Assembly (NCBI GenBank): GCA_963792815.1
Contig: CAWBXR010000011.1
Location: 138,036 to 202,035 of the forward strand
Source: an uncultured Gammaproteobacteria bacterium
Lineage (GTDB): Bacteria; Pseudomonadota; Gammaproteobacteria; Pseudomonadales; Halieaceae
Direction of reading: 5' to 3'
Length of the DNA stretch: 64,000 bases
The notes under the pieces were generated by a model. The model was not told the DNA's origin, searched no databases, and saw only the letters and a list, made by a program, of their open reading frames with translations. A program made the translations under genes and the position numbers. Shown here piece after piece: positions 1-27,518 of this stretch. Numbering within the stretch: the stretch's first letter is position 1; the number at the start of each line of letters is the position of its first letter.

Positions 1-1008
1 CGCCAGCGGTTTTCGCCGGCCAATCACTTTTTCGAACACGCCCGCTGGCGGGCCTGGCTGGCGTACCGGGGCGGCGTCGTGGTGGGCCGCATCACTGCCC
101 AGATCGATGAAATGCACCTGCGCCAGCATGCCGATGGGGCAGGCTATTTCGGCATGCTCGAAGCGGAGGATGACCCCGCCGTGTTTGCCGCACTGCTGGA
201 GGCGGCCGCGCAATGGCTGCGCAGCGAGGGTATGCAGCGGGTACGCGGACCCCTGAATCTCCACATCAACGAAGAGGTGGGACTGCTGGTAGACGGCTTC
301 TCGACCCCGCCCTTCGTGTTGATGGGCCATGCTCGCCCCTACTATGGCGCCGGCATCGAAGGGCAGGGCTACCGCGGGGTGAAGGATTTGCTGGCCTACC
401 ATATCCGCCCCGACTTCGAGCCGCCGCGGGTGATGAACAAGCTGGCTGAGCGCGTGTCGGACCGGGTGAAAGTGCGGGCTGTGCGCCGCAAGCACCTGGG
501 GGAGGACGCGCAGATCATGCTCGGTATTTTCAACGATGCCTGGGAGAAAAACTGGGGTTTTGTGCCGCTGGTGGCCTCCGAGTGGGAGGAGACTGTGCGC
601 ACCCTGGCAAAGCTGATGCCGGACGATTACATCCAGATCGCCGAGTACGACGGTGAACCGGTGGCGTTTATAGTGGCACTGCCCAATCTCAACGAGGCCA
701 CGGCGGACCTGAAAGGAAAATTGCTGCCGTTTGGCTGGGCCAAACTGCTGTGGCGGCTCAAGGTGCGCCACCCCCGGACCGCCCGCATACCGCTTATGGG
801 GGTGCGCCAGAGCTTCCAGCATTCGCGCCTGGGGCCTACCCTTGCGTTCATGGTGATAGACGCCGTACGCAAGGCGATGCATGCCCGCGGCGTGAAAAAT
901 GTCGAGATGGGCTGGATCCTCGAGGATAACGATGGCATGCGCAATATCATTGAAACTATCGGTGGGCAGGCGTATAAGCGCTACCGCGTATACGAAAAAG
1001 AGCTTTAG
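1..1008 (+). CDS. GNAT-fold acyltransferase-like protein (5' end cut by window edge)
   Basis: Frame 1 is open from nt 1 (RQRFSPANHFFEHARWRAWLAYRGGVVVGRITAQID...) and runs into ORF 79..1008. The ORF is long and coherent. It resembles the ~380-aa GNAT-like family often mis-annotated as dATP pyrophosphohydrolase (recognised from memory, no search). Confidence 0.6.
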   Translation, partial: RQRFSPANHFFEHARWRAWLAYRGGVVVGRITAQIDEMHLRQHADGAGYFGMLEAEDDPAVFAALLEAAAQWLRSEGMQRVRGPLNLHINEEVGLLVDGFSTPPFVLMGHARPYYGAGIEGQGYRGVKDLLAYHIRPDFEPPRVMNKLAERVSDRVKVRAVRRKHLGEDAQIMLGIFNDAWEKNWGFVPLVASEWEETVRTLAKLMPDDYIQIAEYDGEPVAFIVALPNLNEATADLKGKLLPFGWAKLLWRLKVRHPRTARIPLMGVRQSFQHSRLGPTLAFMVIDAVRKAMHARGVKNVEMGWILEDNDGMRNIIETIGGQAYKRYRVYEKEL

Positions 1009-1018
1009 AAGGGACATC

Positions 1019-1837
1019 ATGCATCTCAATCCCGAACAGCACCAACTGACGGCAATCGTCCTGGCGGGAGACCGTACCAAGGCTGATTCACTTATCAATC
1101 ACTCCAAGGTCGGCAGCAAGGCGATGATCGATATCGATGGCCTGCCGATGGTGCGCCGGGTCCTGAACGCCCTGCGCCTGTCGCGGGTGGTCAACAAGAT
1201 TGCCCTGTCCGGGCCCGAGGCCAGCGAGGTATCCAAGGACGAACAACTGGCACAATGGGTCGAGGCGGGAGAGGTTGAGTGGAGTGAGCCGGGCGCCAGC
1301 CCCAGCACCAGCGCCTACCAGGCCATGCAGGCGCTGGGTCCGGAAGAGGCGGTTCTGCTGACTACCGCGGATCACCCCCTGCTCACCGCCGAGATTGTCG
1401 ATGCCTTTGGTCGCCAGAGCCTTGCGGATGATGTCGACGTCGTGGTCGGCCTGGCGCCGCACGCCCTGGTGCTGGAGGCTTACCCCGGTATCAAGAAGAC
1501 CGTACTGCGCTTCAGTGACGGCGATTTTTGTGGCTGTAACCTGTTTGCCTTCATCACCCCCGAGGGTCGCCGGGCGGCTCGCTTCTGGCGTCGCATCGAG
1601 CAGCAGCGGAAAAAGCCGCTGGTGGTGATAGGCCTGTTGGGCTGGTGGACGGTCATCCGCTACCGCATGGGGCTGCTGTCACTGGAAGAGGCCCTGGCCA
1701 AGCTGAGCAAGCGCCTGGGCCTGCGGATAAGGGCGGTGATTTTACCCTACGCCAATGCCGCTATCGACGTGGATTCGGTGGCGGACCTGATGCTGGTCAA
1801 GGGCTCCCTCGCCAAAGCCGCCGCGGAAAACGCCTGA
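1019..1837 (+). CDS. MobA-like nucleotidyltransferase (NTP_transf_3 type)
   Basis: An in-frame ATG at 1019 inside ORF 899..1837 lies 10 nt after the upstream stop. The N-terminus TAIVLAGDRTKADSL...GSKAMIDIDGLPMV looks like the LAG-type nucleotide-binding loop of MobA/GlmU-like enzymes. Confidence 0.6.
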   Translation: MHLNPEQHQLTAIVLAGDRTKADSLINHSKVGSKAMIDIDGLPMVRRVLNALRLSRVVNKIALSGPEASEVSKDEQLAQWVEAGEVEWSEPGASPSTSAYQAMQALGPEEAVLLTTADHPLLTAEIVDAFGRQSLADDVDVVVGLAPHALVLEAYPGIKKTVLRFSDGDFCGCNLFAFITPEGRRAARFWRRIEQQRKKPLVVIGLLGWWTVIRYRMGLLSLEEALAKLSKRLGLRIRAVILPYANAAIDVDSVADLMLVKGSLAKAAAENA

Positions 1838-1916: not shown

Positions 1917-2846
1917 TCAACGCGGCGGATATTCCCGCGCCAGCTGCACCTCCCTGGTCTCGCCAGCGCTGAATTCGCCGCTCTCCGGCCGGTAATCCCG
2001 CGCCTGGATCGCCAGCTGCCAGCCCTTGTCATTGCGCTGCACCGAGTAGCAGTTGTAGCTCGCCGGATTGCCGTGCTGCAGTCCCAGCGCCGAGGCGGAC
2101 GGCACGGCGATGACCGGCACGCTGCCGTGGGTGGTGTCCAGCTCGTCGTAATGGGCCCGGTGGCCGTGGCCGTTGAGTACCAGCTCGGCGCCGTGGCGGC
2201 TGATAATGGCCTGCACTTCCGCCGCATCCGTCAGCCGTTTGCGCCACTTCTCCCTGCCTGGCAGGGGCGAGTGGTGCAGGTAGACAACCCGGAACTGGCC
2301 CCTGGCGTGGGCGGCGTCAAGCAGTGCCGGCAGGCGGGCCAGTTGTTCGGGGCCCGCCGTCCCGGTAGCCATGAAAGGCGGTTTGGGACAGGCCGTGTTC
2401 AGGCCGATGAAGGCGATGTCCCCCCGGGTCCGCAGGCTGGGGTACAGTGCCGCAAGGCTGTCCTGGGGGCCGGCTGGTGCATCCGATGCCATGTAGTCCA
2501 GCCAGAGCGCGAAGGTGTCCCGCCAGGGGCTCGGTACTGAGGCGTCGTGGTTGCCCGCAATGACGGCCACGTGGTCGGGTGCGCCGAGGTTTTCCAGCCA
2601 CGTCAGGGCCTGGCGGAATTCCTGGGGCAGGCCCACGTGGGTCAGGTCGCCGGTGACCAGTACCTGGTCGAGCTCGAACTGGTCCAGGTCCTGCTGCAGG
2701 GCGGCCAGCACCTCCGGGCGGTGTTCAAAGCGCCGCCGCCGGCGCCACGACAGGTACCCCAGGGCGCGCTTGGACAGCAGCTCGCCGGGACGCACGCCTT
2801 CGAGCGAACTCAGGTGGGGGTCGGAAATCTGGGCAAAGTGCTGCAT
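1917..2846 (-). CDS. calcineurin-like metallophosphoesterase
   Basis: 309-aa ORF with the motifs ISDPHL (DxH), VTGDLTHVG (GD) and IAGNHD (GNHD). It starts 20 nt downstream of the murA-like stop on the same strand. Confidence 0.8.
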   Translation of the reverse strand: MQHFAQISDPHLSSLEGVRPGELLSKRALGYLSWRRRRRFEHRPEVLAALQQDLDQFELDQVLVTGDLTHVGLPQEFRQALTWLENLGAPDHVAVIAGNHDASVPSPWRDTFALWLDYMASDAPAGPQDSLAALYPSLRTRGDIAFIGLNTACPKPPFMATGTAGPEQLARLPALLDAAHARGQFRVVYLHHSPLPGREKWRKRLTDAAEVQAIISRHGAELVLNGHGHRAHYDELDTTHGSVPVIAVPSASALGLQHGNPASYNCYSVQRNDKGWQLAIQARDYRPESGEFSAGETREVQLAREYPPR

Positions 2847-2866: not shown

Positions 2867-4117
<1,251 letters not shown>

Positions 4118-4118
<1 letters not shown>

Positions 4119-5320
4119 CAGGCGGCCCTGGCCGGCTCGAACAGGCCCGCCTCCTTGAGGCCTGCATAGGCGCTGATAATCCTGTCGATCTGCTCACTGC
4201 TGTGGGCCGCGCTGACACTGTTGCGCAGCAGGAAGTTGGTCGAGGGCGAGGCCGGCGGAATCACCAGGTTGACGTAGACCCCGGCCTCCATCAGCGCCTT
4301 CCAGCAGTCGATGGTGCGGGAGCGATCCACCATTTCCACTGCCACTACCGGGCTGGCGGTGGGGCCTACCGGCAGGTCCAGCGCTTTCAGCCCCTGGTAA
4401 AGCCGGTTGGCGTTATCCCAGACCCGCTGGCGACGCTCGGGCTCCGCGCGGATGATGCGCAGGGCCTCGCGGGTGGAGGCGATCACCGAGGGTGAAGATG
4501 ACGCGGTGAAAATATAGGCCTTGATGCAGAAGCGGATAGCTTCCAGTTCGCTGTGGGGGCTGACACAGAAGCCGCCGATGGAGCCAAGGCTCTTGCTGAA
4601 AGTGCCAACGGTGAAATCCACATCGGCCTCAACCCCAGCGGCCTGCGCGGCGCCGCGACCCGAGTCGCCCAGCACGCCCATGGAGTGAGCCTCGTCCACC
4701 AGCAGGTAGCCGCCGTATTCACGTTTGACCGCGGCGATTTCCTGCAGCGGAGCGACATCGCCCAGCATGGAGTAAATGCCTTCCGCGATGATCAGTGCCT
4801 GGCCCGCACGGTCCCCGAGGCGGCGCATCCGCTTGGCCAGGTCGTCCGGGTCGTTGTGCTTGTAGCGGATGATGTCGGCCTCGCTGAGCTTGACCCCGGA
4901 GTAGATGCTGGCGTGACTGTCCGCGTCCAGCAGTATGACGTCCCCCGGCCCCGCCAGGGTGGCGCACATTCCCATGGTCGCGGCGTAGCCGGTGGAGAAA
5001 ACGATGGCGTTGCTCACGCCGTAAAAGTCCGCTATTTCCCGCTCCAGTGCCTGGTGCTCCGCGAATGAGCCATTGGCCAGGCGCGAACCGGTAGTGCCGG
5101 TGCCCCATTTGGCTGCTGCCTGTTGGGAGGCGGCGATACAGCGCGGGTCGAATGACAGGCCCATGTAGTTGTTGGTACCGGCGAGGATGACCTTGTGGCC
5201 TTCTACCACCCCCTCGGTCGCGGACAGCAGTTGCTCGGTGACGGCACCGAAGGGGACCACTCCGCGTTCGGCGAGTTCGGCCTGAAAGTCGGCCATAGTC
5301 TGGAATTTGTCAAACAGCAT
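4118..5320 (-). CDS. PLP-dependent alpha-oxoamine synthase (Spt/BioF/Kbl family; serine-palmitoyltransferase-like)
   Basis: 400-aa ORF with GTNNYMGLS, LVDEAHSMGVLG and GTFSKSLGSIGGF (Schiff-base Lys context), all typical of the AOS family. Its stop overlaps the murA-like start (TGATG on the minus strand, 4116..4120). A small ACP gene lies directly upstream. Confidence 0.85.
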
Positions 5321-5773: not shown

Positions 5774-6844
5774 ATGGTAATGCCAGTCATTTGGTTGATC
5801 GACGCCTACCGGGCAGGGGAGCAGGGCCAGGTTCGAGCCCTGGTTGATGCCCTCGGCTGGCCTTGCGAAACCAAGCGGCTGACTTACCGCAAACATGTGG
5901 TCCTGCCCCATGTGCTGGGGCTGACGAGCGTGCGTGGAATCAGCACCGAGTCGGTGGCCATGCTGGAGCCGCCCTGGCCGGACCTGGTCATCTCCAGCGG
6001 GGTTCGCAATGAGCCTGTGTGCCGCTGGATTCGCGCACAATCCGGCGGCCATACCCGCTATGTGCACGTTGGTCGACCCTGGGGCCCGCTGGCATCTTTC
6101 GACCTGGTCATCACCACACCCCAGTACAGGGTGCCCCGCCACCCCAACGTGCTGAACAATCTTTTGACCCTGCACAGCGCGACCCCGCAGCGCCTCGCCG
6201 CTGCCCGGGACCAGTGGAGCCCCGCCTTCGCGCATCTGCCGCGGCCCTATATCACCGTTGTCGCCGGTGGCGACAGCGGCCCGTTTACCCTGGGTCCGCT
6301 GGCCGCGAGCCGGCTCGCGCAGCAGGCCTCGGTGCTCGCTCGACAAAGTGGTGGTTCGCTGCTGGTCTCCACCAGTTCGCGCACCAGCGACGAGGCTATC
6401 GCCGCCCTGCAGGCCGGTATCGATGTGCCCAATTACTTTTATCGCTGGCAGCCCTCCGACCCGAAAAACCCCTATTTCGGCATGCTGGCCCTGGCGGACA
6501 GGCTGGTGGTCACCGGCGACAGTATCGCCATGTTGTCCGAAGCCTGCTCCACCGGTCGGCCGGTGCAGATCTTCGACCTGGGGGGAATGCGTGGCGAAAG
6601 CTCTGTTGCCGTTGATTTTCGCATGACTGCCACGCTGTACGCCGGCCTGATGCGCTGGTGCTGGCAGCGCCTGAGTCGCGACATCACCCTGGTACACCGG
6701 GAATTGCGCGCAACCGGCAGGGCATTCTGGATGGATGAGGAGTCAGGCGCCGCAGTGCTGCCGGGGGAGTCAGATATGGACCGGGCCGTGGCGGCGGTGC
6801 AGGGGCTGGTGCCAGCGGACCACCCGACCACGCAAGCTACTTAG
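5774..6844 (+). CDS. ELM1-like (PF06258/COG3660-type) putative GT-B-fold protein, paralog 1
   Basis: ATG at 5774 preceded by GGAAGA, chosen inside ORF 5618..6844. It shares PWPDLVISSG, QSGGHTR and VVTGDSIAML blocks with the ORFs at 11847 and 17141. Confidence 0.7.
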   Translation: MVMPVIWLIDAYRAGEQGQVRALVDALGWPCETKRLTYRKHVVLPHVLGLTSVRGISTESVAMLEPPWPDLVISSGVRNEPVCRWIRAQSGGHTRYVHVGRPWGPLASFDLVITTPQYRVPRHPNVLNNLLTLHSATPQRLAAARDQWSPAFAHLPRPYITVVAGGDSGPFTLGPLAASRLAQQASVLARQSGGSLLVSTSSRTSDEAIAALQAGIDVPNYFYRWQPSDPKNPYFGMLALADRLVVTGDSIAMLSEACSTGRPVQIFDLGGMRGESSVAVDFRMTATLYAGLMRWCWQRLSRDITLVHRELRATGRAFWMDEESGAAVLPGESDMDRAVAAVQGLVPADHPTTQAT

Positions 6845-13012: not shown

Positions 13013-13639
13013 TCAGCGCAGCCGCAGAACGTTTTTCATAAAGTGGGTGCCGAAGCGGCTCAGGCGTTGGGCGGCCACCGCCAGCGGGCTCTCGTCCAGG
13101 TAGTTGAGCTGGACCATGCGCCGCTCCCCGACATAGCGGGTGTGGCCGTGCCAGGAGTGGTCGGTGCGGCGAAAAGCCAGCAAGGTGCCCCCCAGCGGCG
13201 GCACCTGGGCGACATAATTCTCTATATCATCCTTTGAGCGCAGCATGCGCAGCTGCCCGTCCTCGTGGTCCCACTGCTCGTTGAAGTACACCAGCACGGT
13301 GATGACCTTGCTTTTGTGGTCGGTGTGAATGTTGCCGTCGGTCCGCTCGCAGAATTTGCGCACGGTGACCGTGGTGGGCAGGGAAGCCAGTTCCATGTCG
13401 AAGCGCTCACCCAGGGCCGTGGCGAAGTCCGGGGCGCGCAGTTCTTCCATCAGGTCTGCAAAGGCCGGGCCGTACTGCAGGTTATCGAGTGCGTGGTTGG
13501 CCGCGGTTTCAATCGCCGGGTAGTCGGCGTTGACGCGGGCCAGTACCTCGGGGCTGAGAAAGCCCGGCACCACCATATAATCGAAGGGGTCGGTGTGCAG
13601 TTCGGCGTTCTGCAGGGCCTGTATGTTGAGCAGTGACAT
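13013..13639 (-). CDS. 2OG-Fe(II) oxygenase-like protein, paralog 1
   Basis: 208 aa. Contains an HxD triad element (NIHTDHK), a distal His (HSWHGH) and a following Arg (ERRMV), consistent with a prolyl-4-hydroxylase-like double-stranded beta-helix fold. Confidence 0.55.
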   Translation of the reverse strand: MSLLNIQALQNAELHTDPFDYMVVPGFLSPEVLARVNADYPAIETAANHALDNLQYGPAFADLMEELRAPDFATALGERFDMELASLPTTVTVRKFCERTDGNIHTDHKSKVITVLVYFNEQWDHEDGQLRMLRSKDDIENYVAQVPPLGGTLLAFRRTDHSWHGHTRYVGERRMVQLNYLDESPLAVAAQRLSRFGTHFMKNVLRLR

Positions 13640-19239: not shown

Positions 19240-20202
19240 TCAGCGTGAATAGTACTTGATACTGCGCCCGGTCAAGGTGGTGTAGAGCACGCCGCCAGCC
19301 TTCGCCATACGGTACAGGCTGTGCATGAAAGTGCTTTTCGAGAAGATAGAAAAAGGCAATATAATCAAAGAGATAAGCATTTTTGCCAGGGCGGTGGAAA
19401 GCAGTTTCAACATGCGGTTTCCGTCGCCGTGGTAGCGCGCCATATTGACCTGGGAGCAGCCGTTCTTGAAGCCGCGCCTGATCAGCCCGCGGGCGGTGTA
19501 GCGCTCGGGCCCGTGAACCCGGTGGATGATGGATTTTTCCGCCGACGCCAGGCGCGCGCCCATGTGGTGGGCGCGGATGAAGAAGTCCTTGTCCTCGCCG
19601 CCGCTGTTGCAGAAGGCGTGGGAGAAAACCGGCTCCACGTCGCCGACGCGCACCAGGATATTCTTGCTGACCAGCAGGTTGCAGGTAGAGGCGCAGTCGG
19701 GCAGGCCGTAGCGGCCGCCCTTTTTGTCCTGCTTGGTCTTGGTAGGGGAGCGGAATATACCCGACTCCCGGGCCCAGTCAGGCATCTGTTCGTCCAGCAC
19801 CCAGCTGCCGAAAACCAGGTCGGCCCCGGTCTCCTGCTGGCGCTCGAGCAACTGTAGCAACCAGTCCGGCTGGGGTACGTCGTCATCGTCGATAAACGCC
19901 AGGAACCCGGCCCCCCGCTCCAGCGCTACTTTCACGGCGCGATTGCGGGCGTGGGTTATGCCCGGCTCCGGTTCGGTGGTGTAGTGAACATTGATAGGCA
20001 GGCTTGAACCCGTCTGCTCGCAGATGTCGCGGGTGGCGGAATTGGGGTTGTTGTCGATAACGATAAGTTCGACGCCAGCCGGATCGTAGCTGCCCAGCTC
20101 GATATCCATCAGCGTAAGCAGCAGCCGCTTGAGAACTTCCGCGCGGTTATGCGTGCATATGCAAATGGCTACCCGTTGCTCGGGGATGGGGTTTGTGGTC
20201 AT
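19240..20202 (-). CDS. family 2 glycosyltransferase
   Basis: VAICICTHNRAEVLKRLL, VIDNNPNS and LAFIDDDDVP (DxD) are typical of the GT2 N-terminal domain. Hydrophobic C-terminal tail. Confidence 0.8.
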   Translation of the reverse strand: MTTNPIPEQRVAICICTHNRAEVLKRLLLTLMDIELGSYDPAGVELIVIDNNPNSATRDICEQTGSSLPINVHYTTEPEPGITHARNRAVKVALERGAGFLAFIDDDDVPQPDWLLQLLERQQETGADLVFGSWVLDEQMPDWARESGIFRSPTKTKQDKKGGRYGLPDCASTCNLLVSKNILVRVGDVEPVFSHAFCNSGGEDKDFFIRAHHMGARLASAEKSIIHRVHGPERYTARGLIRRGFKNGCSQVNMARYHGDGNRMLKLLSTALAKMLISLIILPFSIFSKSTFMHSLYRMAKAGGVLYTTLTGRSIKYYSR

Positions 20203-20205: not shown

Positions 20206-21144
20206 TTACTTGAATATACCGCGGCGGTAGAGGCCCCAGAAGAATCCCCACAGGTAGATGAGCGGGGCTCGCCTGACCTTGTCGGGAATGACGATGTTCT
20301 CCCCGGAATGCCGTTCCAGTTTCCACGCGATATAATCCAGTCCCCCCTCGAACGTAAACAACGCTTTTACCAATCTCATTATTGAGAGCAGTTTCCCCTG
20401 GCCCCGGCGCAGCGTCCACGCAATCCGCGTAAACAACTGGCTGCTCCGAGCAGTTGCACTGCGGTAGCTCATTTGGCCGCCGACATCATACACCGTAAAG
20501 CCAAAGCCAAGCGAGGGGGACAATTGCCGGGTAACTTCGGCATAGAAGTCGGCGGCGGCCAGGGCCAGTTCGGTAGCCCTGCCCGGGCGCTCGGTGCGCA
20601 GCTCGGTCGAGTAGCTAAGGGCCAGGGCCTGCTCCCACAGGCTGGTCACGGTGCCCTGGGGCGGCAGCACCGGCAGGGTGTTGTGCAACAGCGTCCGGGA
20701 GGCCTGCAGCAGGCAGTGTTCCAGTCCCTGCCGGGTCTGCGCGTCGCGGCTGTAGACGATTCTGGTGGGCTGGGCGAAACGGCCCCAGATATAGGACTCA
20801 AACCAGGCCCGGGAGCAGCCGCGCCGGAAATCCCGCAGGGAAATAACCGTCACCTTGCTGCGCAGGGTCTTGTTCGCCAGCTTGTGCTCCGCGTAGAACA
20901 CGTTCGGTGGCAGCAGCCAGTTGGCCCCCGCCAGCAGCGGCTTGCGGTAGGCTGCGCGGTAGCCGTCGCAGATCAGGTAGAGATCCAGCAGGCCGTCGTA
21001 GATATCGCCGCTGCGCAGGCAGGAGCCGTAGAGCAGGATGCCGCAGATAGCGTCGTGGTGGCGCGCCCGTAATTGCCCCAGCAGCGCCGCCAGGGCGGGG
21101 TCGCTGGCGGCGTCGGGGCCGGCTACATGCGGGTAATCGCTCAC
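20206..21144 (-). CDS. Tam41/Mmp37-like putative lipid-phosphate nucleotidyltransferase (weak assignment)
   Basis: ORF 20206..21348 trimmed to the in-frame GTG at 21144, which overlaps the upstream kinase stop as GTGA. ILLYGSCLRSGD...GLLDLYLIC and VFYAEH...KVTVISLRDF...YIWGRFAQPTRIV recall the Tam41 (PF09139) pattern. This is recognition from memory only. Confidence 0.4.
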   Translation of the reverse strand: MSDYPHVAGPDAASDPALAALLGQLRARHHDAICGILLYGSCLRSGDIYDGLLDLYLICDGYRAAYRKPLLAGANWLLPPNVFYAEHKLANKTLRSKVTVISLRDFRRGCSRAWFESYIWGRFAQPTRIVYSRDAQTRQGLEHCLLQASRTLLHNTLPVLPPQGTVTSLWEQALALSYSTELRTERPGRATELALAAADFYAEVTRQLSPSLGFGFTVYDVGGQMSYRSATARSSQLFTRIAWTLRRGQGKLLSIMRLVKALFTFEGGLDYIAWKLERHSGENIVIPDKVRRAPLIYLWGFFWGLYRRGIFK

Positions 21145-22106
21145 AGGGTGAGAAAGTCCAGGGGCTCGCTGGCGCAGATATCGACCGGCCCGTTTGCCAC
21201 CAGTATTTCCCCGTCGAGGTTCAGTTTGCCATCGAGTTGCAGGCGTATCCGCTGGGCATTGTGGCTGAGATAGCCCGATCCGGATACAGCGTTGCGGTTC
21301 GGCCTGCCCCTGACAATCGACAGGAAAGTGCGGGCGAAGCGGCTGCAACCCTGCTGGAACAGCGTGAGGCGGATCGCGCCGGGGCCGGAACCCCAGAACG
21401 GGCGCATGCCGAAAGCCAGGCGCTGCAGGGTGCTGATCGCCAGGATCAGGGTGTCGTAGCTGGCAGCCCCGCCGTCATCGAGTGTCAGTTCAATACTGAC
21501 ATGGCGGTTGAAGGCCGGGTCGTTGCGGAGCAAACCCCATACAGTGCGCAGGGTTGTCAGGGCCAGGCTGAAATCGTCCCGCAGGCCGCGGGCGTGCACC
21601 TCCTTGTGGGCGTATTCGGTACCCTGGATGATCGCCCCGCCGCCGAGGAACATCCCGTAGCGGGCGGGCTGGTCAGCGCCGAGCTCCACCCGCATAAGCG
21701 CTCGCTGGGCGAGCATGCCCGCGGTTGCGCGCTCGCCCTCGCACCAGTGGCAGAAGCGTTCGGTGGCTTTCCACAGGGAGCCGCTGACACCGATATCGCC
21801 GGCGTTCATGTTGGCGGTGCCGCCCGGCAGGAGCACGATGATGGGCGGGGTTTCGAACAGGCCGCTTTCCAGCAGCTCGCCCAGTATGTTCGAGGCTGTG
21901 CCGTCTCCCCCGTTGATCGCCAGCACTCCCACCCGGGTCTGGGCCAGCTCCGCCAGGGCCGGCCCGACGTCGTCCAGGCTGTGGGTAACTATGTGGTGGA
22001 TCGAGGGACAGCGGGCGATGCGGTTGCGGATGCGTTCGAACTGGTCGCGGTTATGGCCGCTGCCAGGGTTGCTGATCAGCCCCACCGGGCCGGCGGCCCT
22101 GCTCAC
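21141..22106 (-). CDS. DAG-kinase-catalytic-domain lipid kinase (YegS/BmrU-like)
   Basis: GLISNPGSGHN, LAINGGDGT and LLPGGTANM motifs. The GTG start overlaps the upstream stop (GTGA at 22103..22106). Confidence 0.8.
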   Translation of the reverse strand: MSRAAGPVGLISNPGSGHNRDQFERIRNRIARCPSIHHIVTHSLDDVGPALAELAQTRVGVLAINGGDGTASNILGELLESGLFETPPIIVLLPGGTANMNAGDIGVSGSLWKATERFCHWCEGERATAGMLAQRALMRVELGADQPARYGMFLGGGAIIQGTEYAHKEVHARGLRDDFSLALTTLRTVWGLLRNDPAFNRHVSIELTLDDGGAASYDTLILAISTLQRLAFGMRPFWGSGPGAIRLTLFQQGCSRFARTFLSIVRGRPNRNAVSGSGYLSHNAQRIRLQLDGKLNLDGEILVANGPVDICASEPLDFLTL

Positions 22107-22969
22107 TCAGCGGCTTCCCGCAGGGTCGCCGACTTGAGGTTGATTTCGGCATTGCCGATCCGCGGCGCGGTGCCGCGCAATTGCACCGGCAGGCTGTTGG
22201 TCACGTCAAACAGCACGGTGATGTCACCGGCGCCGTCCAGGCCCAGCAGGCTGAAGTCGGGCTTTTCCGCCAGTTCACCCAGGGGGCTGACTTGCAGCGT
22301 CACGCCTCGGGTCTCGCGCTTGCCCGTTACCGCCGCGGCGCCCTGCAGCTGGTAGTTCATCTCGATGGTGGGCCCTTCGCCACGGCTCATTTGCACCCGG
22401 TAAAAATTGAATTCAGTGTTCACCACCGCCTCGGTCGAGGTCTGGTCCGAGTCCAGGAAGCGACCCGCGAGATCGAGCAGGGCGTAGGCGTCGGTCACCA
22501 CCATGCCCGAGGCGGCTGGGGGGTAGGGTATCTTGTGGCGACTGCTAACCGGCCACTCGGCCGGTGGCAGATCCGTTTTGGCTGGTGGGTCATGGCGCAC
22601 CCGCAAAATGTCCTTGGGTCGGAACGCATAGGTCTTGTAGCGCTGCTGCTTGCCCTTGCTGAAGCGCGACCGGTACAGTGCGCGGCCGTCAGCCGGCGCC
22701 AGGTCCAGCACCACCACCTCGACGTTGCTGGCTACCGAGCTGTCAGCCTTGAGCTGCCAGCGCCCGGCGTCCTCGCTGTGTTCGCCAATCTCCACCCGCG
22801 ACCTGGCGGTGACAAAGTACGCCTGCTGTTCGTATTCCAGTACCTGCCAGGCCGGCAGTGGCGGCAGCGCCTCCTTTGAGTTGCCGGCGGCTGCGGCAGG
22901 CAGGCTCGCGAGGGCGGCCGCCGACAGCAGGCAGCAGTGGATAAGCGGGTTACGGGTTATTCTTGTCAT
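22103..22969 (-). CDS. exported hypothetical protein
   Basis: 288 aa with an N-terminal signal peptide (LIHCCLLSAAALASLPAAAAG). ATGA overlap with the upstream ligase-like gene. No family confidently recognised. Confidence 0.6.
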   Translation of the reverse strand: MTRITRNPLIHCCLLSAAALASLPAAAAGNSKEALPPLPAWQVLEYEQQAYFVTARSRVEIGEHSEDAGRWQLKADSSVASNVEVVVLDLAPADGRALYRSRFSKGKQQRYKTYAFRPKDILRVRHDPPAKTDLPPAEWPVSSRHKIPYPPAASGMVVTDAYALLDLAGRFLDSDQTSTEAVVNTEFNFYRVQMSRGEGPTIEMNYQLQGAAAVTGKRETRGVTLQVSPLGELAEKPDFSLLGLDGAGDITVLFDVTNSLPVQLRGTAPRIGNAEINLKSATLREAAE

Positions 22970-24141
22970 TGGTCATGTCCAGGGTAGCGAGCCTTTGCCG
23001 GCAGGTGGCTGGCCGGGTAGGTGGCCATGATAAGCGCCACGGGCAGCCAGAAAAACAGCCACAGTTCCTTGGGCTGAACGAACAGCCGGTCGTAGTCCAT
23101 GGCGACAGATGTCGTACCGTATAGGAGTAGCGCCAGGTAGATTCGTTCCCCGCGCTGGCGATACATCTGCCAGGCCTGGTAGGCGGCTACCGCGAGCAGG
23201 GCCAGCAACAGCGCCAGTCCCACCAGGCCGCCGTCGCGCAGTGTGGCCAGATAACTGTTGTGGGCATGGTCGAACAGCTTGCCGTAGGCCGGAACCCTGG
23301 GGTCGATCAGGTAGCCGTGACCAAACCACCAGTAGCCCTGCATGTCTGTCAGCACCTGCTGCCAGATGCCGGGACGAAAGGAGAAATCGCCGACCCGGTG
23401 CAGCCAGAGGCTGGAGTTGGTGGCCATCACCGCCCACATCGTGGCGACACCGGCCGCAGCCACTCCCAGCGCCCGGTAACCGAGCAGCACCAGCAGGCCG
23501 ACACAGACCCCGGCCATGGCCGTGCGCGACTGGGTGAACACAATCAGGCACAGGATTGCCAGGGACAGCGAAGCGTATACCCACCTGTTTTCCCGTCCTC
23601 GCTGCGTGAATACGTAGTGCATGCACAACACCAGGAAAATGCCGTAGGCGGAGGCCGCCTTGTTCTGGTGGTGCATTACGCCCAGGGGTTCCAGTCGGGA
23701 TTCGGGAAAGGGATTCTGCAGGTACCAGGCCGCGATCGACACCACGGCGGCGGCGGCCGCCAGCCAGGTGGCGCGATGGGCCAGCAGGTCCATCAGGCTG
23801 GCCTGGCGCACCCACAGGTAACCGCTGATAAAGCAGAAGCTCAGGACGCACAGGGCATAGCCCGCCGCCTGCAGTGCCGGCAGCAGTTCAAAGTCCGCCG
23901 TCCACAGCAGGCTGCTCATCATGTAGCAGCAGTAGAGCAGAAGCAGCAGCGCGAGTGTGTTGGCGCGGTAGAACTGTGCCAGTTCGCGCCACAGCACCAG
24001 GACGGCGGGCAGCACCAGGACGTAGTAGACCTTGCGGTGGCCCGAGGCCATGGGCAGCAGGAAGTAACCGGCGATGAATACGGCGTAAAAGTACACCATT
24101 CCCCGGTCCAACAGGAATCGCTGAAATGCCTTGAAATCCAT
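22966..24141 (-). CDS. O-antigen ligase (Wzy_C) family membrane protein
   Basis: 391 aa and polytopic. Contains FTQSRTAMAGVCVGLLVLLGY and HAHNSYLATLRDGGLVGL, characteristic of WaaL/Wzy_C proteins. First gene of the six-gene minus-strand operon. Confidence 0.75.
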   Translation of the reverse strand: MDFKAFQRFLLDRGMVYFYAVFIAGYFLLPMASGHRKVYYVLVLPAVLVLWRELAQFYRANTLALLLLLYCCYMMSSLLWTADFELLPALQAAGYALCVLSFCFISGYLWVRQASLMDLLAHRATWLAAAAAVVSIAAWYLQNPFPESRLEPLGVMHHQNKAASAYGIFLVLCMHYVFTQRGRENRWVYASLSLAILCLIVFTQSRTAMAGVCVGLLVLLGYRALGVAAAGVATMWAVMATNSSLWLHRVGDFSFRPGIWQQVLTDMQGYWWFGHGYLIDPRVPAYGKLFDHAHNSYLATLRDGGLVGLALLLALLAVAAYQAWQMYRQRGERIYLALLLYGTTSVAMDYDRLFVQPKELWLFFWLPVALIMATYPASHLPAKARYPGHDQ

Positions 24142-24269: not shown

Positions 24270-25193
24270 ATGCACATGATTATCAAGCGACTGACCAAGT
24301 GGCTGGTTCGCGCGATTTCCATATTCCTGCCCGAAGCGAAGGCGCACGAACTCGAGCGCTGGCGCCGCGGGCGCGAGGAGTTCTGGAAGTATAACCGCTG
24401 CCAATACATCTTTGCATCCTATGGCAAGAGCGGGCGTACCTGGGTGCGGGTGATGATCTCCCGCTACTACCAGCTGGTGTACAAGCTGCCCGACAATATC
24501 CTGATGGGTTTCGACAATTACACCCGTCTCAACAAGGACATCCCGAAAATCTTCTTTACCCACGACAATTACCTGCGCGGCTTCACCGGCAATGTCGATT
24601 CGAAGAAGGATTTCTACGACAAGAAAACCGTGCTGCTGGTGCGCAATCCCATCGACGTCGCCGTGTCGCAGTTCTTCCAGTGGAAGTACCGTATGCGCCC
24701 GGAAAAAAAGGCGATGAACAAGTATCCGGAGCACGAGGCCGATATCTCGGTATATGACTTCGTCAAGGACGAGAACCAGGGCCTGTCCCACATCATCGAG
24801 TTCATGAACAACTGGGCGCGTGAGTTGCCGAAGATCAAGAGCTTGCTGGTGGTTCGCTACGAGGACCTGCGCAGCAGTCCGGAGCGGGAGATGGGGCGCA
24901 TCGTCGAATTCCTGGGTATGGAAGCCAATGAGGAATACCTGCGCGATACCGCGGAGTTTGCCTCGGTGGAAAACCTGCGCAAGAAAGAACAGGAGAACTA
25001 TTTCTGGCGCAGCGGCAGCCGGGTGCAAGCCAAGGACGTCAACGATCCCAATACCTTCAAGGTGCGCAAGGCCAAGGTGGGCGGCTACCGCGATTACTTT
25101 GACGACGATCAAGTGGCAGAGCTCGACGCGATGGTAGATTCGCGCCTGTTACCGGTATTCGGGTATACCGCCGCCGAGAGCACGGGGGGCTGA
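24270..25193 (+). CDS. PAPS-dependent sulfotransferase-domain protein, paralog 4
   Basis: YGKSGRTWV, LVRNPIDVAVSQF and FKVRKAKVGGYRDYF. First gene of a plus-strand operon. Confidence 0.85.
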   Translation: MHMIIKRLTKWLVRAISIFLPEAKAHELERWRRGREEFWKYNRCQYIFASYGKSGRTWVRVMISRYYQLVYKLPDNILMGFDNYTRLNKDIPKIFFTHDNYLRGFTGNVDSKKDFYDKKTVLLVRNPIDVAVSQFFQWKYRMRPEKKAMNKYPEHEADISVYDFVKDENQGLSHIIEFMNNWARELPKIKSLLVVRYEDLRSSPEREMGRIVEFLGMEANEEYLRDTAEFASVENLRKKEQENYFWRSGSRVQAKDVNDPNTFKVRKAKVGGYRDYFDDDQVAELDAMVDSRLLPVFGYTAAESTGG

Positions 25194-25196
25194 GCA

Positions 25197-26108
25197 ATGG
25201 ACAAGTGTGTATTCATTCATACCAATGAGCGCCAGTGGTTGGGCGCGCTGGTGGCCGAGTACTCATTTCGCCGCAATTCGCGCCACCCCGACCAGTTCGA
25301 TGTGCGTTTTATCCATACCCGCGATCACCCCTTCCTCGCAGCCCGGGAGGGCCAGAGCTTTTTGCGTGGGGGCACTACCCGGGTCTGGCACATGGACGAC
25401 CTGCAGTCTTTCACGCCGCTGCGATTCCTGCCGCCAAAACTGATGAACTGGCAGGGCAGGGCGGTGGTCACCGACCCGGACGTATTTGCTGTCGGCGACA
25501 TCAACGAGTTGCTGGACCGGGACATGGGCGGTACAGCCGTTATGGGCCGGCACCGTTCCGGCAAGTCCGAGAAGGGCTACCAGGTGGCAACCAGCGTCAT
25601 GCTGCTCGACTGCGCCAAGCTGCGGCACTGGGACGCGGAGGAGACCTTTGGCGAACTGTTCCGCTCCGAGAAGGATTACAAGGAATGGCTGGTGCTGGCC
25701 TACGAGGACCCGGCCACCATCGGTTACCTCGAGGACTGCTGGAACGACTTCGACCACCTCGATGCCAACACCCGGCTGCTGCACAATACCAAGCGCCGTA
25801 CCCAGCCCTGGAAGACCGGGCTGCCGGTGGATTTCACCCCGGCTGACAAGTTCAAGGACAAGCCCCTGCTGGCATCCCTGAACCGGCTGCGCGCCAATGT
25901 TTTCGGAGAGTACGGCTTGTTGGGGCGCTACCACGAGCACCCGGACAAACAGCAGGAAGCATTTTTCTTCGGCCTGTTGCAGGAATGCCTGGATTGCGGG
26001 CATGTCACCGAGCAACTGGTGCGGGAGGAAATCAGCAAAAACCACGTCCGCCATGACGCCTTCGAGGTGCTGGCGCGAACACCGCCACTGGCAAGTAGGG
26101 CCGCATGA
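25197..26108 (+). CDS. GT8-like glycosyltransferase, paralog 3
   Basis: MDKCVFIHTNERQ..., DLQSFTPLRF, GRAVVTDPDVF, TSVMLLDCAKLRHW and LHNTKRRTQPWKTGL. Starts 3 nt after the sulfotransferase 4 stop. Confidence 0.65.
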   Translation: MDKCVFIHTNERQWLGALVAEYSFRRNSRHPDQFDVRFIHTRDHPFLAAREGQSFLRGGTTRVWHMDDLQSFTPLRFLPPKLMNWQGRAVVTDPDVFAVGDINELLDRDMGGTAVMGRHRSGKSEKGYQVATSVMLLDCAKLRHWDAEETFGELFRSEKDYKEWLVLAYEDPATIGYLEDCWNDFDHLDANTRLLHNTKRRTQPWKTGLPVDFTPADKFKDKPLLASLNRLRANVFGEYGLLGRYHEHPDKQQEAFFFGLLQECLDCGHVTEQLVREEISKNHVRHDAFEVLARTPPLASRAA

Positions 26109-26821
26109 AGTATATCAATATAGAAAAACTGCGAGGATTGGATCGGGCGGAGTTTCTCAGGATAAAACCCTATCCCTATTACAACAGCGAAGGCGTACTG
26201 ACCGAAACGGGCTTCCAGGATCTGCTGGCGAATATGCCGGCGCTGGATATGTTCAAGCAGAATTTCGGTTACGAGCGCCGGGCGGGGCAGGCCCCCCACG
26301 ACCGCTATTCACTGGAATATGAACCGGGTATGCCGGTGCCGCGTCCCTGGCAGGGGTTTATCGACGAGCTGCGCAGCGACGCTTACCGCAACGAGGTGGC
26401 GCGCCTGCTGGGGGCGAAGAAGATCGAATTCCGCTTTCACTGGCACTACACCCCTTCCGGTTGTGACGTGTCGCCCCACTGCGATGCGCGGCGCGAACAT
26501 GGCTCCCACCTGTTTTACTTCAATTCCAAAGACGACTGGGACCCGGCCTGGGGTGGCTCCACCCTGGTCCTCGATGACGGCGGTCGGCTCGATTACAACT
26601 CGGCGCCGGGCTTCGACGAGTTCGATGCGGCCCACGAGTGCGAGTCGATAGGTAATTACAGTTCGCTGATGTTGCGCACTGACCACGCCTGGCACGCGGT
26701 GCGCGCCATCGATTGTCCGGAAGGGCGCCTGCGCCGGGTGTTCATCGTGGTAGTGAATCCCGTGAGCCTGTTCTGGAAACTGCGTGACCGCGCCATCGGC
26801 AAGAAAATCCAGCGACTCTAA
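26105..26821 (+). CDS. 2OG-Fe(II) oxygenase-like protein, paralog 2
   Basis: ATGA overlap with the upstream gene. Contains SPHCDAR (HxD), HAWHAV (distal His) and RLRRVF (Arg). Confidence 0.55.
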   Translation: MKYINIEKLRGLDRAEFLRIKPYPYYNSEGVLTETGFQDLLANMPALDMFKQNFGYERRAGQAPHDRYSLEYEPGMPVPRPWQGFIDELRSDAYRNEVARLLGAKKIEFRFHWHYTPSGCDVSPHCDARREHGSHLFYFNSKDDWDPAWGGSTLVLDDGGRLDYNSAPGFDEFDAAHECESIGNYSSLMLRTDHAWHAVRAIDCPEGRLRRVFIVVVNPVSLFWKLRDRAIGKKIQRL

Positions 26822-27518
26822 TACGCCCGGAACCCCGCGGGCGGGTGAGCTACACCTGTGGTTGTGTCGACGCGCGGCGACAGCTGGCTCCGACGCATTC
26901 CTGCGCGATGTCCTGTCAAACTACACTGAAACCGCCCCGGATCAGTTGAGTGTCACCCGCGGCGCCCACGGCAAGCCGGCACTTGCCTGGCCGTTACTGC
27001 CGCTCGATTTCAACCTCAGCGGCAGCGGCGACTGGCTGGCGATGGCTGTCAGCGACGGTGCCCCGGTCGGTGTCGACATCCAGTACTGCGATCCCGGCCG
27101 CGAGGTGATGCCCCTGGCCCGTCGCTTTTTTCGCGAGCGGGAAGTAGCCGAGCTGCAGGACTGCGCGCCGGCGCAGCGCAGCGACCGGTTTTACGAGTAC
27201 TGGACGCTCAAGGAAGCCCATATCAAGGCTGCCGGCGGGTCCCTCGGGCTCGAGCTCGAGAAAACCGGATTTATTCTCAGCTTTCCGCAGGCCGCCGACT
27301 CCATCGGATCGACCGGTACTATCGTCCCGCTGGGGCCTGAATCTGCCGCGGCCGCCTGGTATGGCCTGGTGCAGCCCTTTGCCGACTACAGGCTGGCTAT
27401 TTGTTGCCACGCCTTGCGGGATTTCAGCACCGGCATCCGCTTGTGCGATCTGCCCGGCAGCAGTTATTCTGTCGACCATCCGTTCGATTTGCGAGCAGTT
27501 TCCCGATCGCCGACTTAA
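26784..27518 (+). CDS. Sfp-type 4'-phosphopantetheinyl transferase
   Basis: FNLSGSGDWLAMAV, GVDIQ and YWTLKEAHIKAAG motifs. The only in-frame ATG is at 26784 (38-nt overlap with the upstream gene), so the start is uncertain. Confidence 0.75.
   Translation: MTAPSARKSSDSNTPGTPRAGELHLWLCRRAATAGSDAFLRDVLSNYTETAPDQLSVTRGAHGKPALAWPLLPLDFNLSGSGDWLAMAVSDGAPVGVDIQYCDPGREVMPLARRFFREREVAELQDCAPAQRSDRFYEYWTLKEAHIKAAGGSLGLELEKTGFILSFPQAADSIGSTGTIVPLGPESAAAAWYGLVQPFADYRLAICCHALRDFSTGIRLCDLPGSSYSVDHPFDLRAVSRSPT

Follow-up and report, generated by a model that had tools for sequence, protein, structure and literature searches.

Gene content and layout of the island

The stretch of DNA analysed here, referred to as the window, comprises 64,000 nucleotides from an uncultured gammaproteobacterium of the family Halieaceae (assembly GCA_963792815.1, contig CAWBXR010000011.1, positions 138,036 to 202,035) and has a guanine-plus-cytosine (GC) content of about 63%. 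Its nucleotides 1-27518 carry an unbroken series of 27 genes for envelope lipids and glycans (Table 1), in which genes of ceramide synthesis are interleaved with those of glycosyltransferases, sulfotransferases and lipid exporters. We will call this series the island. Open reading frames (ORFs) were chosen by codon-position GC, families were assigned by Pfam and NCBIfam scans, and paralogues were detected by all-against-all BLASTP. A preliminary description, drawn from the sequence without database searches, had listed the gene families of the island and proposed profile searches of its ORFs as a check. Every listed family was found at its place, and the family names were borne out almost throughout; the exceptions are given below.

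The same description had placed the limits of the island at nt 1 and 27518. While the gene run stands, the left boundary does not. The reading frame of the first gene, encoding a bCerS-like protein, is open to nt 1, so the edge of the window cuts both this gene and the island. In locus L018, whose serine palmitoyltransferase (Spt) is 93% identical to that of the window, genes for CerR (a 287-aa epimerase-fold protein) and AasR (a fatty acyl-AMP ligase, 782 bits) are located 0.4-3 kb past the position of the left edge, and two LpxL-family acyltransferases and a fatty-acid hydroxylase come after them. This indicates that the island extends at least 6 kb further to the left.

Several of the longest ORFs were too long, and the likely starts are at nt 1019, 5780, 9724, 10821 and 21144. 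The genes are packed tightly. Those for the Wzy_C protein, the barrel protein, CpgB, CpgC and the GT2 enzyme are spaced by 4-nt overlaps or a 3-nt gap only, with the core GT8-like gene following GT2 after 76 nt on the same strand. Sulfotransferase 4, the third GT8-like gene, the second 2-oxoglutarate (2OG) oxygenase-like gene and the phosphopantetheinyl transferase (PPTase) gene are contiguous, and the first ELM1-like gene diverges from the acp-spt pair across a spacer of 77 bp. This operon structure ties the genes of glycan decoration to those of the ceramide-phosphate layer. Apart from the MurA-like gene, the genes of the island are intact, and their codon-position GC is normal. The GC content of the island is uniform, being mildly lower over two sulfotransferase segments, and Rfam and tRNA scans returned nothing within the island and no tRNA-flanked boundary.

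For comparison with relatives, the Spt protein was scanned against species-representative genomes, and island proteins were searched by tblastn against 80 Spt loci. In addition, six 21-kb contexts were collected, five of them through the core GT8-like protein (L081, Thiogranum longum; L082; L084, Chromatiales; L085, Porticoccaceae; L086, Gammaproteobacteria SG8_31) and one through the barrel protein (L083, Halieaceae).

Table 1. Genes of the island, with window coordinates and the principal profile matches or other support (E, E-value)
Gene product	Coordinates	Strand	Support
bCerS-like N-acyltransferase (GNAT-like ceramide synthase)	1..1008	+	Acetyltransf_1 weak; 5' end cut by window edge
MobA/CofC-like nucleotidyltransferase	899..1837 (likely start 1019)	+	PF12804 E 2.6e-13; Caulobacter CC_1153 orthologue
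Calcineurin-like metallophosphoesterase (CC_1158-like)	1917..2846	-	PF00149 E 5.6e-11
MurA-like enolpyruvyl transferase	2867..4118	-	TIGR01072 murA 427 bits, passes equivalog cut-off
Serine palmitoyltransferase (Spt)	4118..5320	-	NF047599 592 bits, cut-off 500
Dedicated acyl carrier protein (AcpR-like), 80 aa	5460..5702	-	PP-binding E 1e-9
ELM1-like GT-B, orthogroup A (KdoT family)	5780..6844	+	PF06258 E 6e-60; S-x-R-T
Fused ABC exporter (MsbA/HepA-like), candidate flippase	6837..8582	-	ABC_membrane, ABC_tran
LptG-type permease	8654..9724	-	TIGR04408 268 bits (cut-off 240); E. coli LptG 147 bits
LptF-type permease	9721..10821	-	TIGR04407 265 bits (cut-off 230); P. aeruginosa LptF 131 bits
Sulfotransferase 1 (PAPS-type)	10922..11863	+	PF00685 E 2e-23; HPKSGNTWL, ARNPIDIAVS
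ELM1-like GT-B, orthogroup B	11847..12968	+	PF06258 E 4e-50; exact SRRT
2OG-Fe(II) oxygenase	13013..13639	-	PF13640 E 8e-9
Sulfotransferase 2 (PAPS-type)	13835..14746	+	PF00685 E 1e-25; PSB and PB motifs aligned
Sulfotransferase 3 (PAPS-type)	14743..15681	+	PF00685 E 7e-24; 4-nt overlap with sulfotransferase 2
GT8-like GT-A, paralogue 1	16170..17060	-	PF01501 weak, E 0.015; L085 orthologue 74% identical
ELM1-like GT-B, orthogroup C	17141..18244	+	PF06258 E 2e-56
GT8-like GT-A, core member	18219..19163	-	75-81% identical across orders; pLDDT 81 model
GT2 glycosyltransferase	19240..20202	-	PF00535 E 1e-23
CpgC-like (Tam41/Mmp37-like) protein	20206..21144	-	PF09139 weak, E 5e-4
CpgB-like DAGK-fold ceramide kinase (predicted)	21141..22106	-	PF00781 E 3e-12
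Secreted all-beta protein, 288 aa, DUF1849/EipB-like barrel	22103..22969	-	N-terminal signal-like helix; AlphaFold2
Wzy_C (O-antigen ligase/polymerase family) membrane protein	22966..24141	-	PF04932 E 1e-9; about 8 or more hydrophobic segments
Sulfotransferase 4 (PAPS-type)	24270..25193	+	PF00685 E 5e-23; YGKSGRTWV, VRNPIDVAVS
GT8-like GT-A, paralogue 3	25197..26108	+	56-57% identical to other two; L082 orthologue 73%
Possible 2OG-Fe(II) oxygenase-like protein, 238 aa	26105..26821	+	PF13640 weak, E 0.01
Sfp-type 4'-phosphopantetheinyl transferase	26784..27518	+	PF01648 E 1e-14; HetI and AcpT models match

Ceramide core and head-group genes

The protein originally recorded as an alpha-oxoamine synthase exceeds the cut-off of the Spt model and matches the Sphingomonas SPT structures (PDB 2x8u) with an E-value of 8.5e-124, as against about 1e-55 for BioF and Kbl. 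These matches identify it as a true serine palmitoyltransferase, and the placement with BioF or Kbl that the preliminary description had named as a refutation was not found. Its acyl carrier protein (ACP) gene is located directly upstream of spt in the window and in all related loci. The ACP is presumably activated by the Sfp-type PPTase; in L082 and L083, too, a PPTase gene borders the cluster.

In Caulobacter, the products Spt, AcpR, bCerS, CerR and AasR of the locus CC_1152-CC_1168 make ceramide (PMC11324152, PMC12275187). The bCerS-like protein of the window is 44-49% identical to its homologues in Caulobacter-type loci (47% to the ORF at the CC_1154 position) and 57-61% identical to the products of 381-393 aa genes in L081, L084 and L018. 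The adjacent nucleotidyltransferase shares 32-38% identity with its counterparts in Caulobacter-type loci, the counterpart in the Caulobacter locus L033 being the ORF directly after bCerS. We considered this protein as CpgD and rejected the assignment, as its position matches that of CC_1153 next to bCerS and not that of CC_1152. The metallophosphoesterase is 36-40% identical to the corresponding ORF of the Caulobacter locus and 45-50% identical to its homologues in L081 and L086.

The genes for ACP, Spt, a MurA-like protein and the metallophosphoesterase had been described as one run from nt 5702 to nt 1917. This gene order is correct, but the MurA-like gene is not intact. In place of the single ORF of relatives, it comprises two, 3744-4118 and 2867-3865, which match EPSP_synthase positions 2-114 and 114-417, respectively. 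The split is caused by one extra G at about nt 3778, before the Cys codon of the GGC(A)IG catalytic loop: at nt 3770-3785 (minus strand) the window reads CCCGGCGGGCTG, compared with CCCGGC-GGCTG in L001, L002 and L018. The extra nucleotide stands beside a short G run; it may be an error of assembly, or else the gene is a genuine pseudogene. The MurA-like gene is missing between spt and the phosphoesterase gene in 5 of 16 Halieaceae loci, and thus appears to be dispensable for the gene kit.

The neighbouring DAGK_cat (diacylglycerol kinase fold, DAGK) and Tam41-like genes are homologous to Caulobacter ORFs next to spt. The former encodes a CpgB-like protein, 24-29% identical to its counterparts in Caulobacter-type loci (27% to the ORF at the cpgB position). 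CpgB of Caulobacter has been characterised as a ceramide kinase (PMC10331486) and is cited as such in a further report (PMC12275187). As for the Tam41-like protein, the Pfam match is weak, but phmmer gave clear homology, with E-values of 1e-106 to 1e-39 to ORFs beside spt or cpgB in L081, L082 and Caulobacter-type loci, including Caulobacter cpgC; identity in Caulobacter-type loci is 28-31%. CpgC is needed for ceramide phosphoglycerate in Caulobacter (PMC11324152, PMC12275187, PMC10331486), while addition of the second phosphoglycerate requires, or is aided by, CpgA, the CTP:phosphoglycerate cytidylyltransferase CpgD, CC_1153 and CC_1158 (PMC11324152, PMC12275187). The preliminary description had attributed to Caulobacter a ceramide kinase of the DAGK fold and a ceramide synthase resembling GNAT proteins; both are documented there (PMC11324152, PMC12275187), and both have orthologues in the window. 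CpgA resembles a CDP-alcohol phosphotransferase, and tblastn of 30 island and flanking window proteins gave no match to the CpgA ORF (L033:13077-14534). Since homologues of CpgA and CpgD are absent from the window, the head group is probably not the Caulobacter ceramide phosphoglycerate CPG2 itself.

The acyltransferases found beyond the left edge in L018 belong to a conserved trio, LpxL-like/FA_hydroxylase (Sur2/Scs7-type family)/LpxL-like, which accompanies the ceramide genes and occupies nt 18638-21176 in L018, 15465-18115 in L084 and 4596-7176 in L085, in the last case between cerR and cpgB. The LpxL-like proteins score 152-185 bits against an LpxL/LpxM cut-off of 273. Scores so far under every LpxL/LpxM cut-off suggest secondary acylation of an acceptor other than lipid A.

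Export genes and the barrel protein

A run of lptF, lptG and an MsbA-like exporter gene had been noted, and is confirmed at nt 10821-6837. The start of lptG at nt 9724 overlaps the stop of lptF by 4 nt. The pair, with two PF03739 proteins, is situated inside the sphingolipid locus between ELM1-like genes and acp-spt, and it is kept in L081, L082 and L085. In L085 (18181-20319), LptF and LptG appear as a single 712-aa product, which may be a gene fusion or an artefact of gene calling or frameshift. The fused ABC exporter reaches 242 bits with the MsbA model (cut-off 602) and 290 bits with the HepA model (cut-off 725); with such scores it is not classed as an MsbA orthologue. Its homologues in L081, L082 and L086 are 52-64% identical, always beside lptFG and spt.

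In Caulobacter, LptF2 and LptG2 are required for sphingolipid export and bind LptB (bioRxiv 10.64898/2026.04.12.717747). The export role that the preliminary description had assigned to LptFG has therefore gained ground, as LptFG homologues in sphingolipid loci are linked experimentally to sphingolipid export. Both window permeases pass the equivalog cut-offs of lipopolysaccharide (LPS) export, in contrast to LptF2 and LptG2 of Caulobacter. The pair of Thiogranum scores 325 and 272 bits (TIGR04407 and TIGR04408). The gammaproteobacterial copies are thus closer to canonical LptFG than the Caulobacter LptF2/G2 proteins are. We also considered whether the window genes may be second lptFG copies; the bit scores with PDB proteins and the NCBIfam calibration against LptF2/G2 weigh, if anything, against assuming paralogy.

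The gene directly upstream of the ceramide kinase gene encodes a secreted all-beta protein, and it was found in this position throughout, with homologues of 26-31% identity in other orders (L082, L084, L085). Its AlphaFold2 model (predicted local distance difference test, pLDDT, 89.7) has as best Foldseek match the Brucella DUF1849 protein 6ntr (probability 1.0, template modelling (TM) score about 0.5), followed by weaker matches to the LolA superfamily. The close family counts 159 proteins, whose named members belong to Halieaceae or Pseudomonadales. From its fold, the protein is a candidate periplasmic lipid-handling factor. Two other assignments were rejected. An analogue of CpgA is contradicted by the signal peptide, the all-beta structure and the lack of similarity to CDP-alcohol phosphotransferases; as for LptC2, the LptC-like jellyroll was not among the fold matches, whereas the DUF1849 barrel was.

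Glycosyltransferases and sulfotransferases

Three ELM1-like glycosyltransferases are encoded in the island. They are 32-41% identical to each other (BLASTP), and each has orthologues of its own, with identities of 49-55% for A (L081, L082, L084, L086), 44-61% for B and 48-60% for C (five loci). An S-x-R-T motif is invariant in nine ELM1-like sequences taken from the window and two distant loci. Together with PF06258, this motif places the triplet in the KdoT family. The ELM1-like family is established as one of lipid-linked glycosyltransferases through its one characterised bacterial member, KdoT. KdoT of A. baumannii is an inverting GT-B CMP-Kdo transferase (Kdo, 3-deoxy-D-manno-oct-2-ulosonic acid) acting on Kdo2-lipid IVA, and its activity depends on the second Arg of the SRRT motif (PMC12856342, PMC10936431). 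Assignment of the window proteins as GT-B enzymes is founded on Pfam and on the KdoT paper, while sequence searches of PDB with the GT8-like profile and an ELM1-like protein returned chance matches only. The likeness to KdoT (A1S_2903) comprises PF06258, the lack of a predicted membrane segment, an S-R-R-T or S-x-R-T motif with the functional Arg, and location in an envelope-glycolipid locus. However, the window holds three ancient paralogues linked to spt and ceramide genes, whereas KdoT is single and belongs to the ilvE-aspS outer-core locus.

Another triplet had been called GT8-like. This name is justified by fold, but no member matches PF01501 above the gathering score: E-values were 0.015 and 0.24, the best score was 15.3 bits, where 24.3 are required, and for one of the paralogues there was no match at all. 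The three proteins are 55-59% identical (59% for 16170-17060 versus 18219-19163), and a DPD motif is invariant in their alignment, which also has an H-x7-PW motif of GT8-like type. For the AlphaFold2 model of the core member (pLDDT 81), Foldseek gave GT8 only, with probability 1.0 (GlyE, LARGE1, XXYLT1, glycogenin, LgtC). The top 50 matches were GT8-type folds, mostly of CAZy family GT8, with TM scores of 0.4-0.5, so the modelled structure assigns the triplet to the GT8 GT-A fold. None of the 5172 homologues of the core member carried a Pfam domain, and the few names given by the sources were all 'hypothetical protein'. Among the 120 best-scoring of these homologues, which come from several gammaproteobacterial orders, identity was 73-90%, compared with 40-60% for the neighbouring genes. 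In the sampled contexts, the core gene was always beside the ELM1-like gene of orthogroup C. We regard the GT8-like proteins as a separate unnamed family and a candidate for a new glycosyltransferase family.

The four sulfotransferases, of the type that uses 3'-phosphoadenosine 5'-phosphosulfate (PAPS), are 29-49% identical to each other, with BLAST E-values of 1e-46 to 1e-111. In agreement with the preliminary description, which had reported intact PAPS motifs, all four keep the KSG(R/N)TW loop of the 5'-phosphosulfate-binding (5'-PSB) site and the R(D/N)PxDxAVS motif of the 3'-phosphate-binding (3'-PB) site. Judged by these motifs, the enzymes look functional, and they share operons with glycosyltransferase and PPTase genes. 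Sulfotransferase 1 has orthologues of 67-69% identity in L085 and L086, and the best PDB matches of sulfotransferase 2 are the soluble enzymes SULT2A1, plant SOT18 and the glycopeptide sulfotransferase Teg12. No membrane segment was predicted in the sulfotransferases, ELM1-like or GT8-like proteins, and the GT2 enzyme had one C-terminal hydrophobic segment. The lipid would therefore be decorated before it is flipped, on the cytoplasmic side of the membrane, where PAPS is at hand.

Two 2OG-oxygenase paralogues had also been listed. The first of them is supported, having orthologues of 58-63% identity in L085 and L086. The second, with a weak profile match and homologues near spt in L006, L053 and L056, is not detectably a paralogue of the first. 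A homologue of the Wzy_C protein is present in L081-L084. NCBIfam had no model for bCerS, CpgB/C, the ELM1-like and GT8-like proteins or the sulfotransferases.

Conservation of the gene kit

The best Spt matches, at 73-93% identity, came from Halieaceae (Haliea, Halioglobus and metagenome-assembled genomes (MAGs) labelled 'Pseudomonadales'), followed by more distant Gammaproteobacteria; Spt proteins of Caulobacter and other Alphaproteobacteria were 52-58% identical. About 16 Halieaceae loci show synteny with the left half of the island, which runs from bCerS to sulfotransferase 3. The right half is repeated gene for gene in L083, a Halieaceae contig of 815 kb.

A neighbourhood search, which had been suggested for co-occurring families, found the kit together with ceramide genes in all six contexts (6/6), in shuffled order. 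According to best-hit mapping, the conserved core consists of the three ELM1-like orthogroups, the core GT8-like gene, the barrel-cpgB-cpgC trio, the Wzy_C gene, lptF, lptG, the ABC exporter gene, bCerS, the CC_1153-like and CC_1158-like genes, acp and spt. The variable layer is represented by sulfotransferases, extra GT8-like genes, GT2 or GT4 genes, 2OG oxygenases, a methyltransferase and the MurA-like gene. Sulfotransferases were present in five of the six contexts, with zero to four copies per context. Among the 80 Spt loci, 16 had sulfotransferase matches, none of them labelled alphaproteobacterial. Homologues of the ELM1-like and GT8-like genes were also found beside spt in some alphaproteobacterial loci. 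The kit thus recurs near spt in Halieaceae, Porticoccaceae, Chromatiales, Thiogranum and freshwater gammaproteobacterial MAGs. Gene order differs between these lineages, yet the genes stay together, which indicates functional linkage. This is the strongest available argument that they serve one shared product.

One locus, L023 (CAMAXE010000013.1), is labelled Klebsiella pneumoniae and has the same cluster of spt, ELM1-like, GT8-like and sulfotransferase genes as the freshwater MAGs L019 and L020. The Spt proteins of L023 and the window share 60% identity, and the Klebsiella label is probably wrong.

As noted beforehand, cysDNC, waaA and heptosyltransferase genes were missing: no such domain was detected among the scanned ORFs across the window. 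Pfam and NCBIfam matches in the island and in the six 21-kb contexts likewise included no waaA, heptosyltransferase (GT9), lpx or kds gene. The marker genes of an ordinary LPS-core locus were thus absent from these matches.

Comparison with known systems

Eight to nine window genes are orthologous to the Caulobacter ceramide/ceramide-phosphoglycerate locus. These comprise orthologues of CC_1153, CC_1154, CC_1158, CC_1160, CC_1161, CC_1162 and CC_1163, together with the LptF/G homologues. Both loci thus share Spt, AcpR, bCerS, the CC_1153-like and CC_1158-like proteins, CpgB, CpgC and an LptF/LptG pair. Like the Caulobacter CPG2 locus, the island is predicted to make an anionic outer-membrane sphingolipid exported by an Lpt-type system, with AasR and CerR adjacent in close relatives of the window. 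In contrast to Caulobacter, the window is devoid of CpgA, CpgD, the HIT protein, the Wzx-like flippase, the CDP-glycerol transferase and LptC2. What the window has beyond the Caulobacter locus are three KdoT-family, three GT8-like and one GT2 glycosyltransferase, four sulfotransferases, 2OG oxygenases, Wzy_C, the MsbA-like ABC exporter, the MurA-like protein, the PPTase and the DUF1849-like barrel.

The island also resembles classical LPS assembly, in which soluble or peripheral glycosyltransferases act on a lipid anchor at the cytoplasmic face, the product is flipped by an ABC transporter, further glycan is added by a Wzy_C/WaaL-type ligase, and LptFG extract the product. GT8-fold enzymes and LpxL-family acyltransferases are common to LPS-core assembly and the cluster kit. 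Unlike in an LPS locus, however, the ceramide genes are the sole lipid-anchor genes, with no lpx, waaA, kds or heptosyltransferase genes, and sulfotransferases stand in place of the LPS core kinases, the usual suppliers of negative charge.

Ceramide-anchored acidic glycolipids that replace LPS are represented by sphingomonad glycosphingolipids (GSL-1 to GSL-4). Envelope glycoconjugates that are sulfated with PAPS are known from Sinorhizobium (LpsS) and, as sulfolipid-1, from mycobacteria. Sphingomonad glycosphingolipids are not known to be sulfated, and the known sulfated lipids are not sphingolipids. Our literature search revealed no described locus joining sulfation with bacterial sphingolipids. 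It also yielded no account of sulfotransferase, ELM1-like or GT8-like genes in bacterial sphingolipid loci, or of a cluster of such type. The earlier statement that no characterised pathway has this gene combination therefore applies to the decoration layer; it fails for the core of ceramide, ceramide-1-phosphate and LptFG genes, which is a known system.

Proposed pathway and alternative explanations

We favour, with a probability of about 0.55, the explanation that the island is a gammaproteobacterial sphingolipid locus with an added layer of glycan and sulfate decoration, building and exporting an LPS-like anionic glycosphingolipid. According to the proposed route, the PPTase would make holo-ACP, and AasR, encoded to the left of the window position in relatives, would load the acyl chain. 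Spt would condense acyl-ACP with serine, bCerS would N-acylate the product, and CerR, encoded off the window, would reduce it to dihydroceramide. For these ceramide steps, homology is established and the biochemistry is known from Caulobacter. The CpgB-like kinase would then make ceramide-1-phosphate, and the CpgC-like protein, the CC_1153-like nucleotidyltransferase and the CC_1158-like phosphoesterase would elaborate a phospho-linked head group. At the cytoplasmic face, a short oligosaccharide would be added by the three KdoT-family GT-B enzymes (possibly transferring ulosonic acids), up to three GT8-like GT-A enzymes and the GT2 enzyme. The four soluble PAPS-dependent sulfotransferases would esterify this glycan or hydroxyls introduced by the 2OG oxygenases. 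On the model of LPS export and of Caulobacter LptF2G2, the MsbA-like ABC exporter would flip the lipid. Wzy_C may ligate or polymerise further glycan at the periplasmic face, and LptF/LptG, presumably together with LptB, would extract the lipid to the Lpt bridge, perhaps assisted by the DUF1849-like barrel. The product would be a ceramide-phosphate-anchored, glycosylated and sulfated lipid.

Several observations weigh against this interpretation. Conserved gene linkage is all that points to the presumed acceptor of the glycosyl- and sulfotransferases. As to the product, the preliminary description had likewise named both a sulfatide-like glycosphingolipid and a sulfated LPS core. The decoration families themselves are best known from LPS (KdoT with Kdo2-lipid IVA, GT8 with the outer core, WaaL-type Wzy_C, MsbA/LptFG). 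Neither a CpgA or CpgD homologue nor genes for PAPS synthesis are present in the window, CerR and AasR are not encoded within the 64 kb, and the MurA-like gene is frameshifted. Furthermore, the window LptF and LptG pass the cut-offs of 230 and 240 bits for LPS export, below which Caulobacter LptF2 and LptG2 remain with 189 and 228 bits. From this difference, the window pair could be the only, housekeeping LptFG of the cell.

The last points lead to an explanation by two separate products, a simple phosphosphingolipid and a sulfated lipid A-core (LPS or lipooligosaccharide), with the encoded LptFG as the ordinary LPS exporter. The genes would then be clustered due to shared outer-membrane function or regulation rather than a shared substrate. 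The activity of KdoT on Kdo2-lipid IVA (PMC12856342) fits such an arrangement, as do the LptF/LptG scores, which unlike those of Caulobacter LptF2/G2 pass the LPS cut-offs, and the two Lip_A_acyltrans genes found on the flanks of the cluster in relatives. Typical core loci contain GT8 and WaaL genes, and rhizobia have a sulfated LPS (LpsS). Nevertheless, waaA, heptosyltransferase, lpx and kds genes are all absent from the window and the six contexts. The ABC exporter falls far below the MsbA cut-off (242 versus 602 bits) and the LpxL-like proteins far below that of LpxL/LpxM (152-185 versus 273 bits), and in L085 the LpxL-like genes stand between cerR and cpgB. Moreover, the genes of ceramide synthesis are intermixed with those of glycosyltransferases and sulfotransferases, translation of cpgB and cpgC is coupled to that of the neighbouring barrel protein, with hardly any gap to GT2, and ELM1-like and GT8-like homologues occur beside spt in some alphaproteobacterial loci as well. 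On balance, we consider two separate products rather unlikely.

Sulfated polysaccharides are common in marine bacteria, and the decoration genes might instead make a surface polysaccharide of this kind (capsule, exopolysaccharide or O-antigen) on an undecaprenyl carrier, unrelated to the sphingolipid genes. Wzy_C proteins include polymerases, and the differing GT2 and GT4 genes and variable sulfotransferase copy numbers of individual loci would suit such a polymer. However, the Pfam scan of the island returned no initiating phosphoglycosyltransferase and no Wzx, Wza/Wzc or Kps genes, the ELM1-like orthogroups and the core GT8-like protein are conserved across orders (up to 81%) in a way that serotype-variable polysaccharide genes are not, and the kit is linked to ceramide genes in 6/6 contexts. 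This makes a polysaccharide improbable. The remaining explanation, a partly decayed and inactive island that gives no sulfated product, is very improbable. It draws on the 1-nt insertion in the MurA-like gene, but that insertion is equally compatible with an assembly error near the short G run and affects a gene that is missing from its position in 5 of 16 Halieaceae loci and hence appears dispensable, while no other gene is disrupted, codon-position GC is normal, and catalytic and PAPS motifs are conserved.

Flanking regions of the window

To the right of the island, nt 27361-34937 encode a DAO-type FAD oxidoreductase, a DUF3581 protein, a NodU/CmcH-type carbamoyltransferase, which could modify a glycan, a DUF3604 protein and a WS/DGAT wax-ester synthase. 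This flank is syntenic in L083 up to DUF3604, where that locus ends; in L082, it does not belong to the cluster, and ribosomal protein genes come after the PPTase gene. Further on, TamB-like (47133-49388) and TamA-like (49378-51279) genes are preceded by a 491-aa ORF of very high GC and without Pfam match (45492-46967), the GC content of the 46-48 kb segment reaching 73%. The segment 51300-55657 has a lower GC of 56% and contains a 559-aa class-V aminotransferase-like ORF (52863-54542). The only tRNA gene of the window, tRNA-Arg(CCG), is located at 54596-54672 and is followed by a gene of the TauE/SafE sulfite-exporter family, which runs from 54884 to 55657. A second envelope export module occupies nt 57623-61608, with co-directional genes for a LolA_like protein, two MacB/FtsX-type permeases and an ABC ATPase.

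Implications

Carried further, the ceramide-anchored product leads to a more general proposal, which we put forward tentatively as a possibility short of even odds. Many marine and freshwater Gammaproteobacteria, among them Halieaceae, Porticoccaceae, Chromatiales and Thiogranum, might assemble on ceramide a further 'lipopolysaccharide' that does not depend on lipid A. Its anchor would be a ceramide phosphate, with extra acyl chains added after hydroxylation by the divergent LpxL-like enzymes. Three ancient KdoT-family enzymes would make the inner core and the new GT8-like family the outer core, sulfate esters would replace phosphates, a WaaL-like ligase would add an optional polymer, and a dedicated MsbA-like flippase and LptFG would export the product, all of these features forming part of the same joint proposal. 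In some lineages, the LptFG pair may be the only one of the cell, and the Lpt pathway may serve the sphingolipid or have been taken over by it.

That bacterial sphingolipids can take over the role of LPS and rely on Lpt paralogues has been shown only recently, in the single model organism Caulobacter. A far more elaborate version of such a system appears to be widespread in cultured and uncultured Gammaproteobacteria, including the coastal OM60/NOR5 group, and one of its signature enzymes, the core GT8-like protein, has more than 5000 public homologues and no family name. If the proposed pathway is correct, the known outer-membrane lipids would be joined by a further class, that of sulfated glycosphingolipids which may carry Kdo. 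Substrates could also be assigned to three enzyme families that are unnamed or misnamed, namely the proteins annotated as 'mitochondrial fission ELM1-like', the GT8-like family and the cluster sulfotransferases. The lipid A-specificity of the Lpt machinery would become directly testable in cultivable strains. Finally, such a lipid would be relevant to phage receptors, to the targets of polymyxin-type antibiotics and, as sulfated material of the cell surface, to the cycling of sulfur and carbon in the sea.

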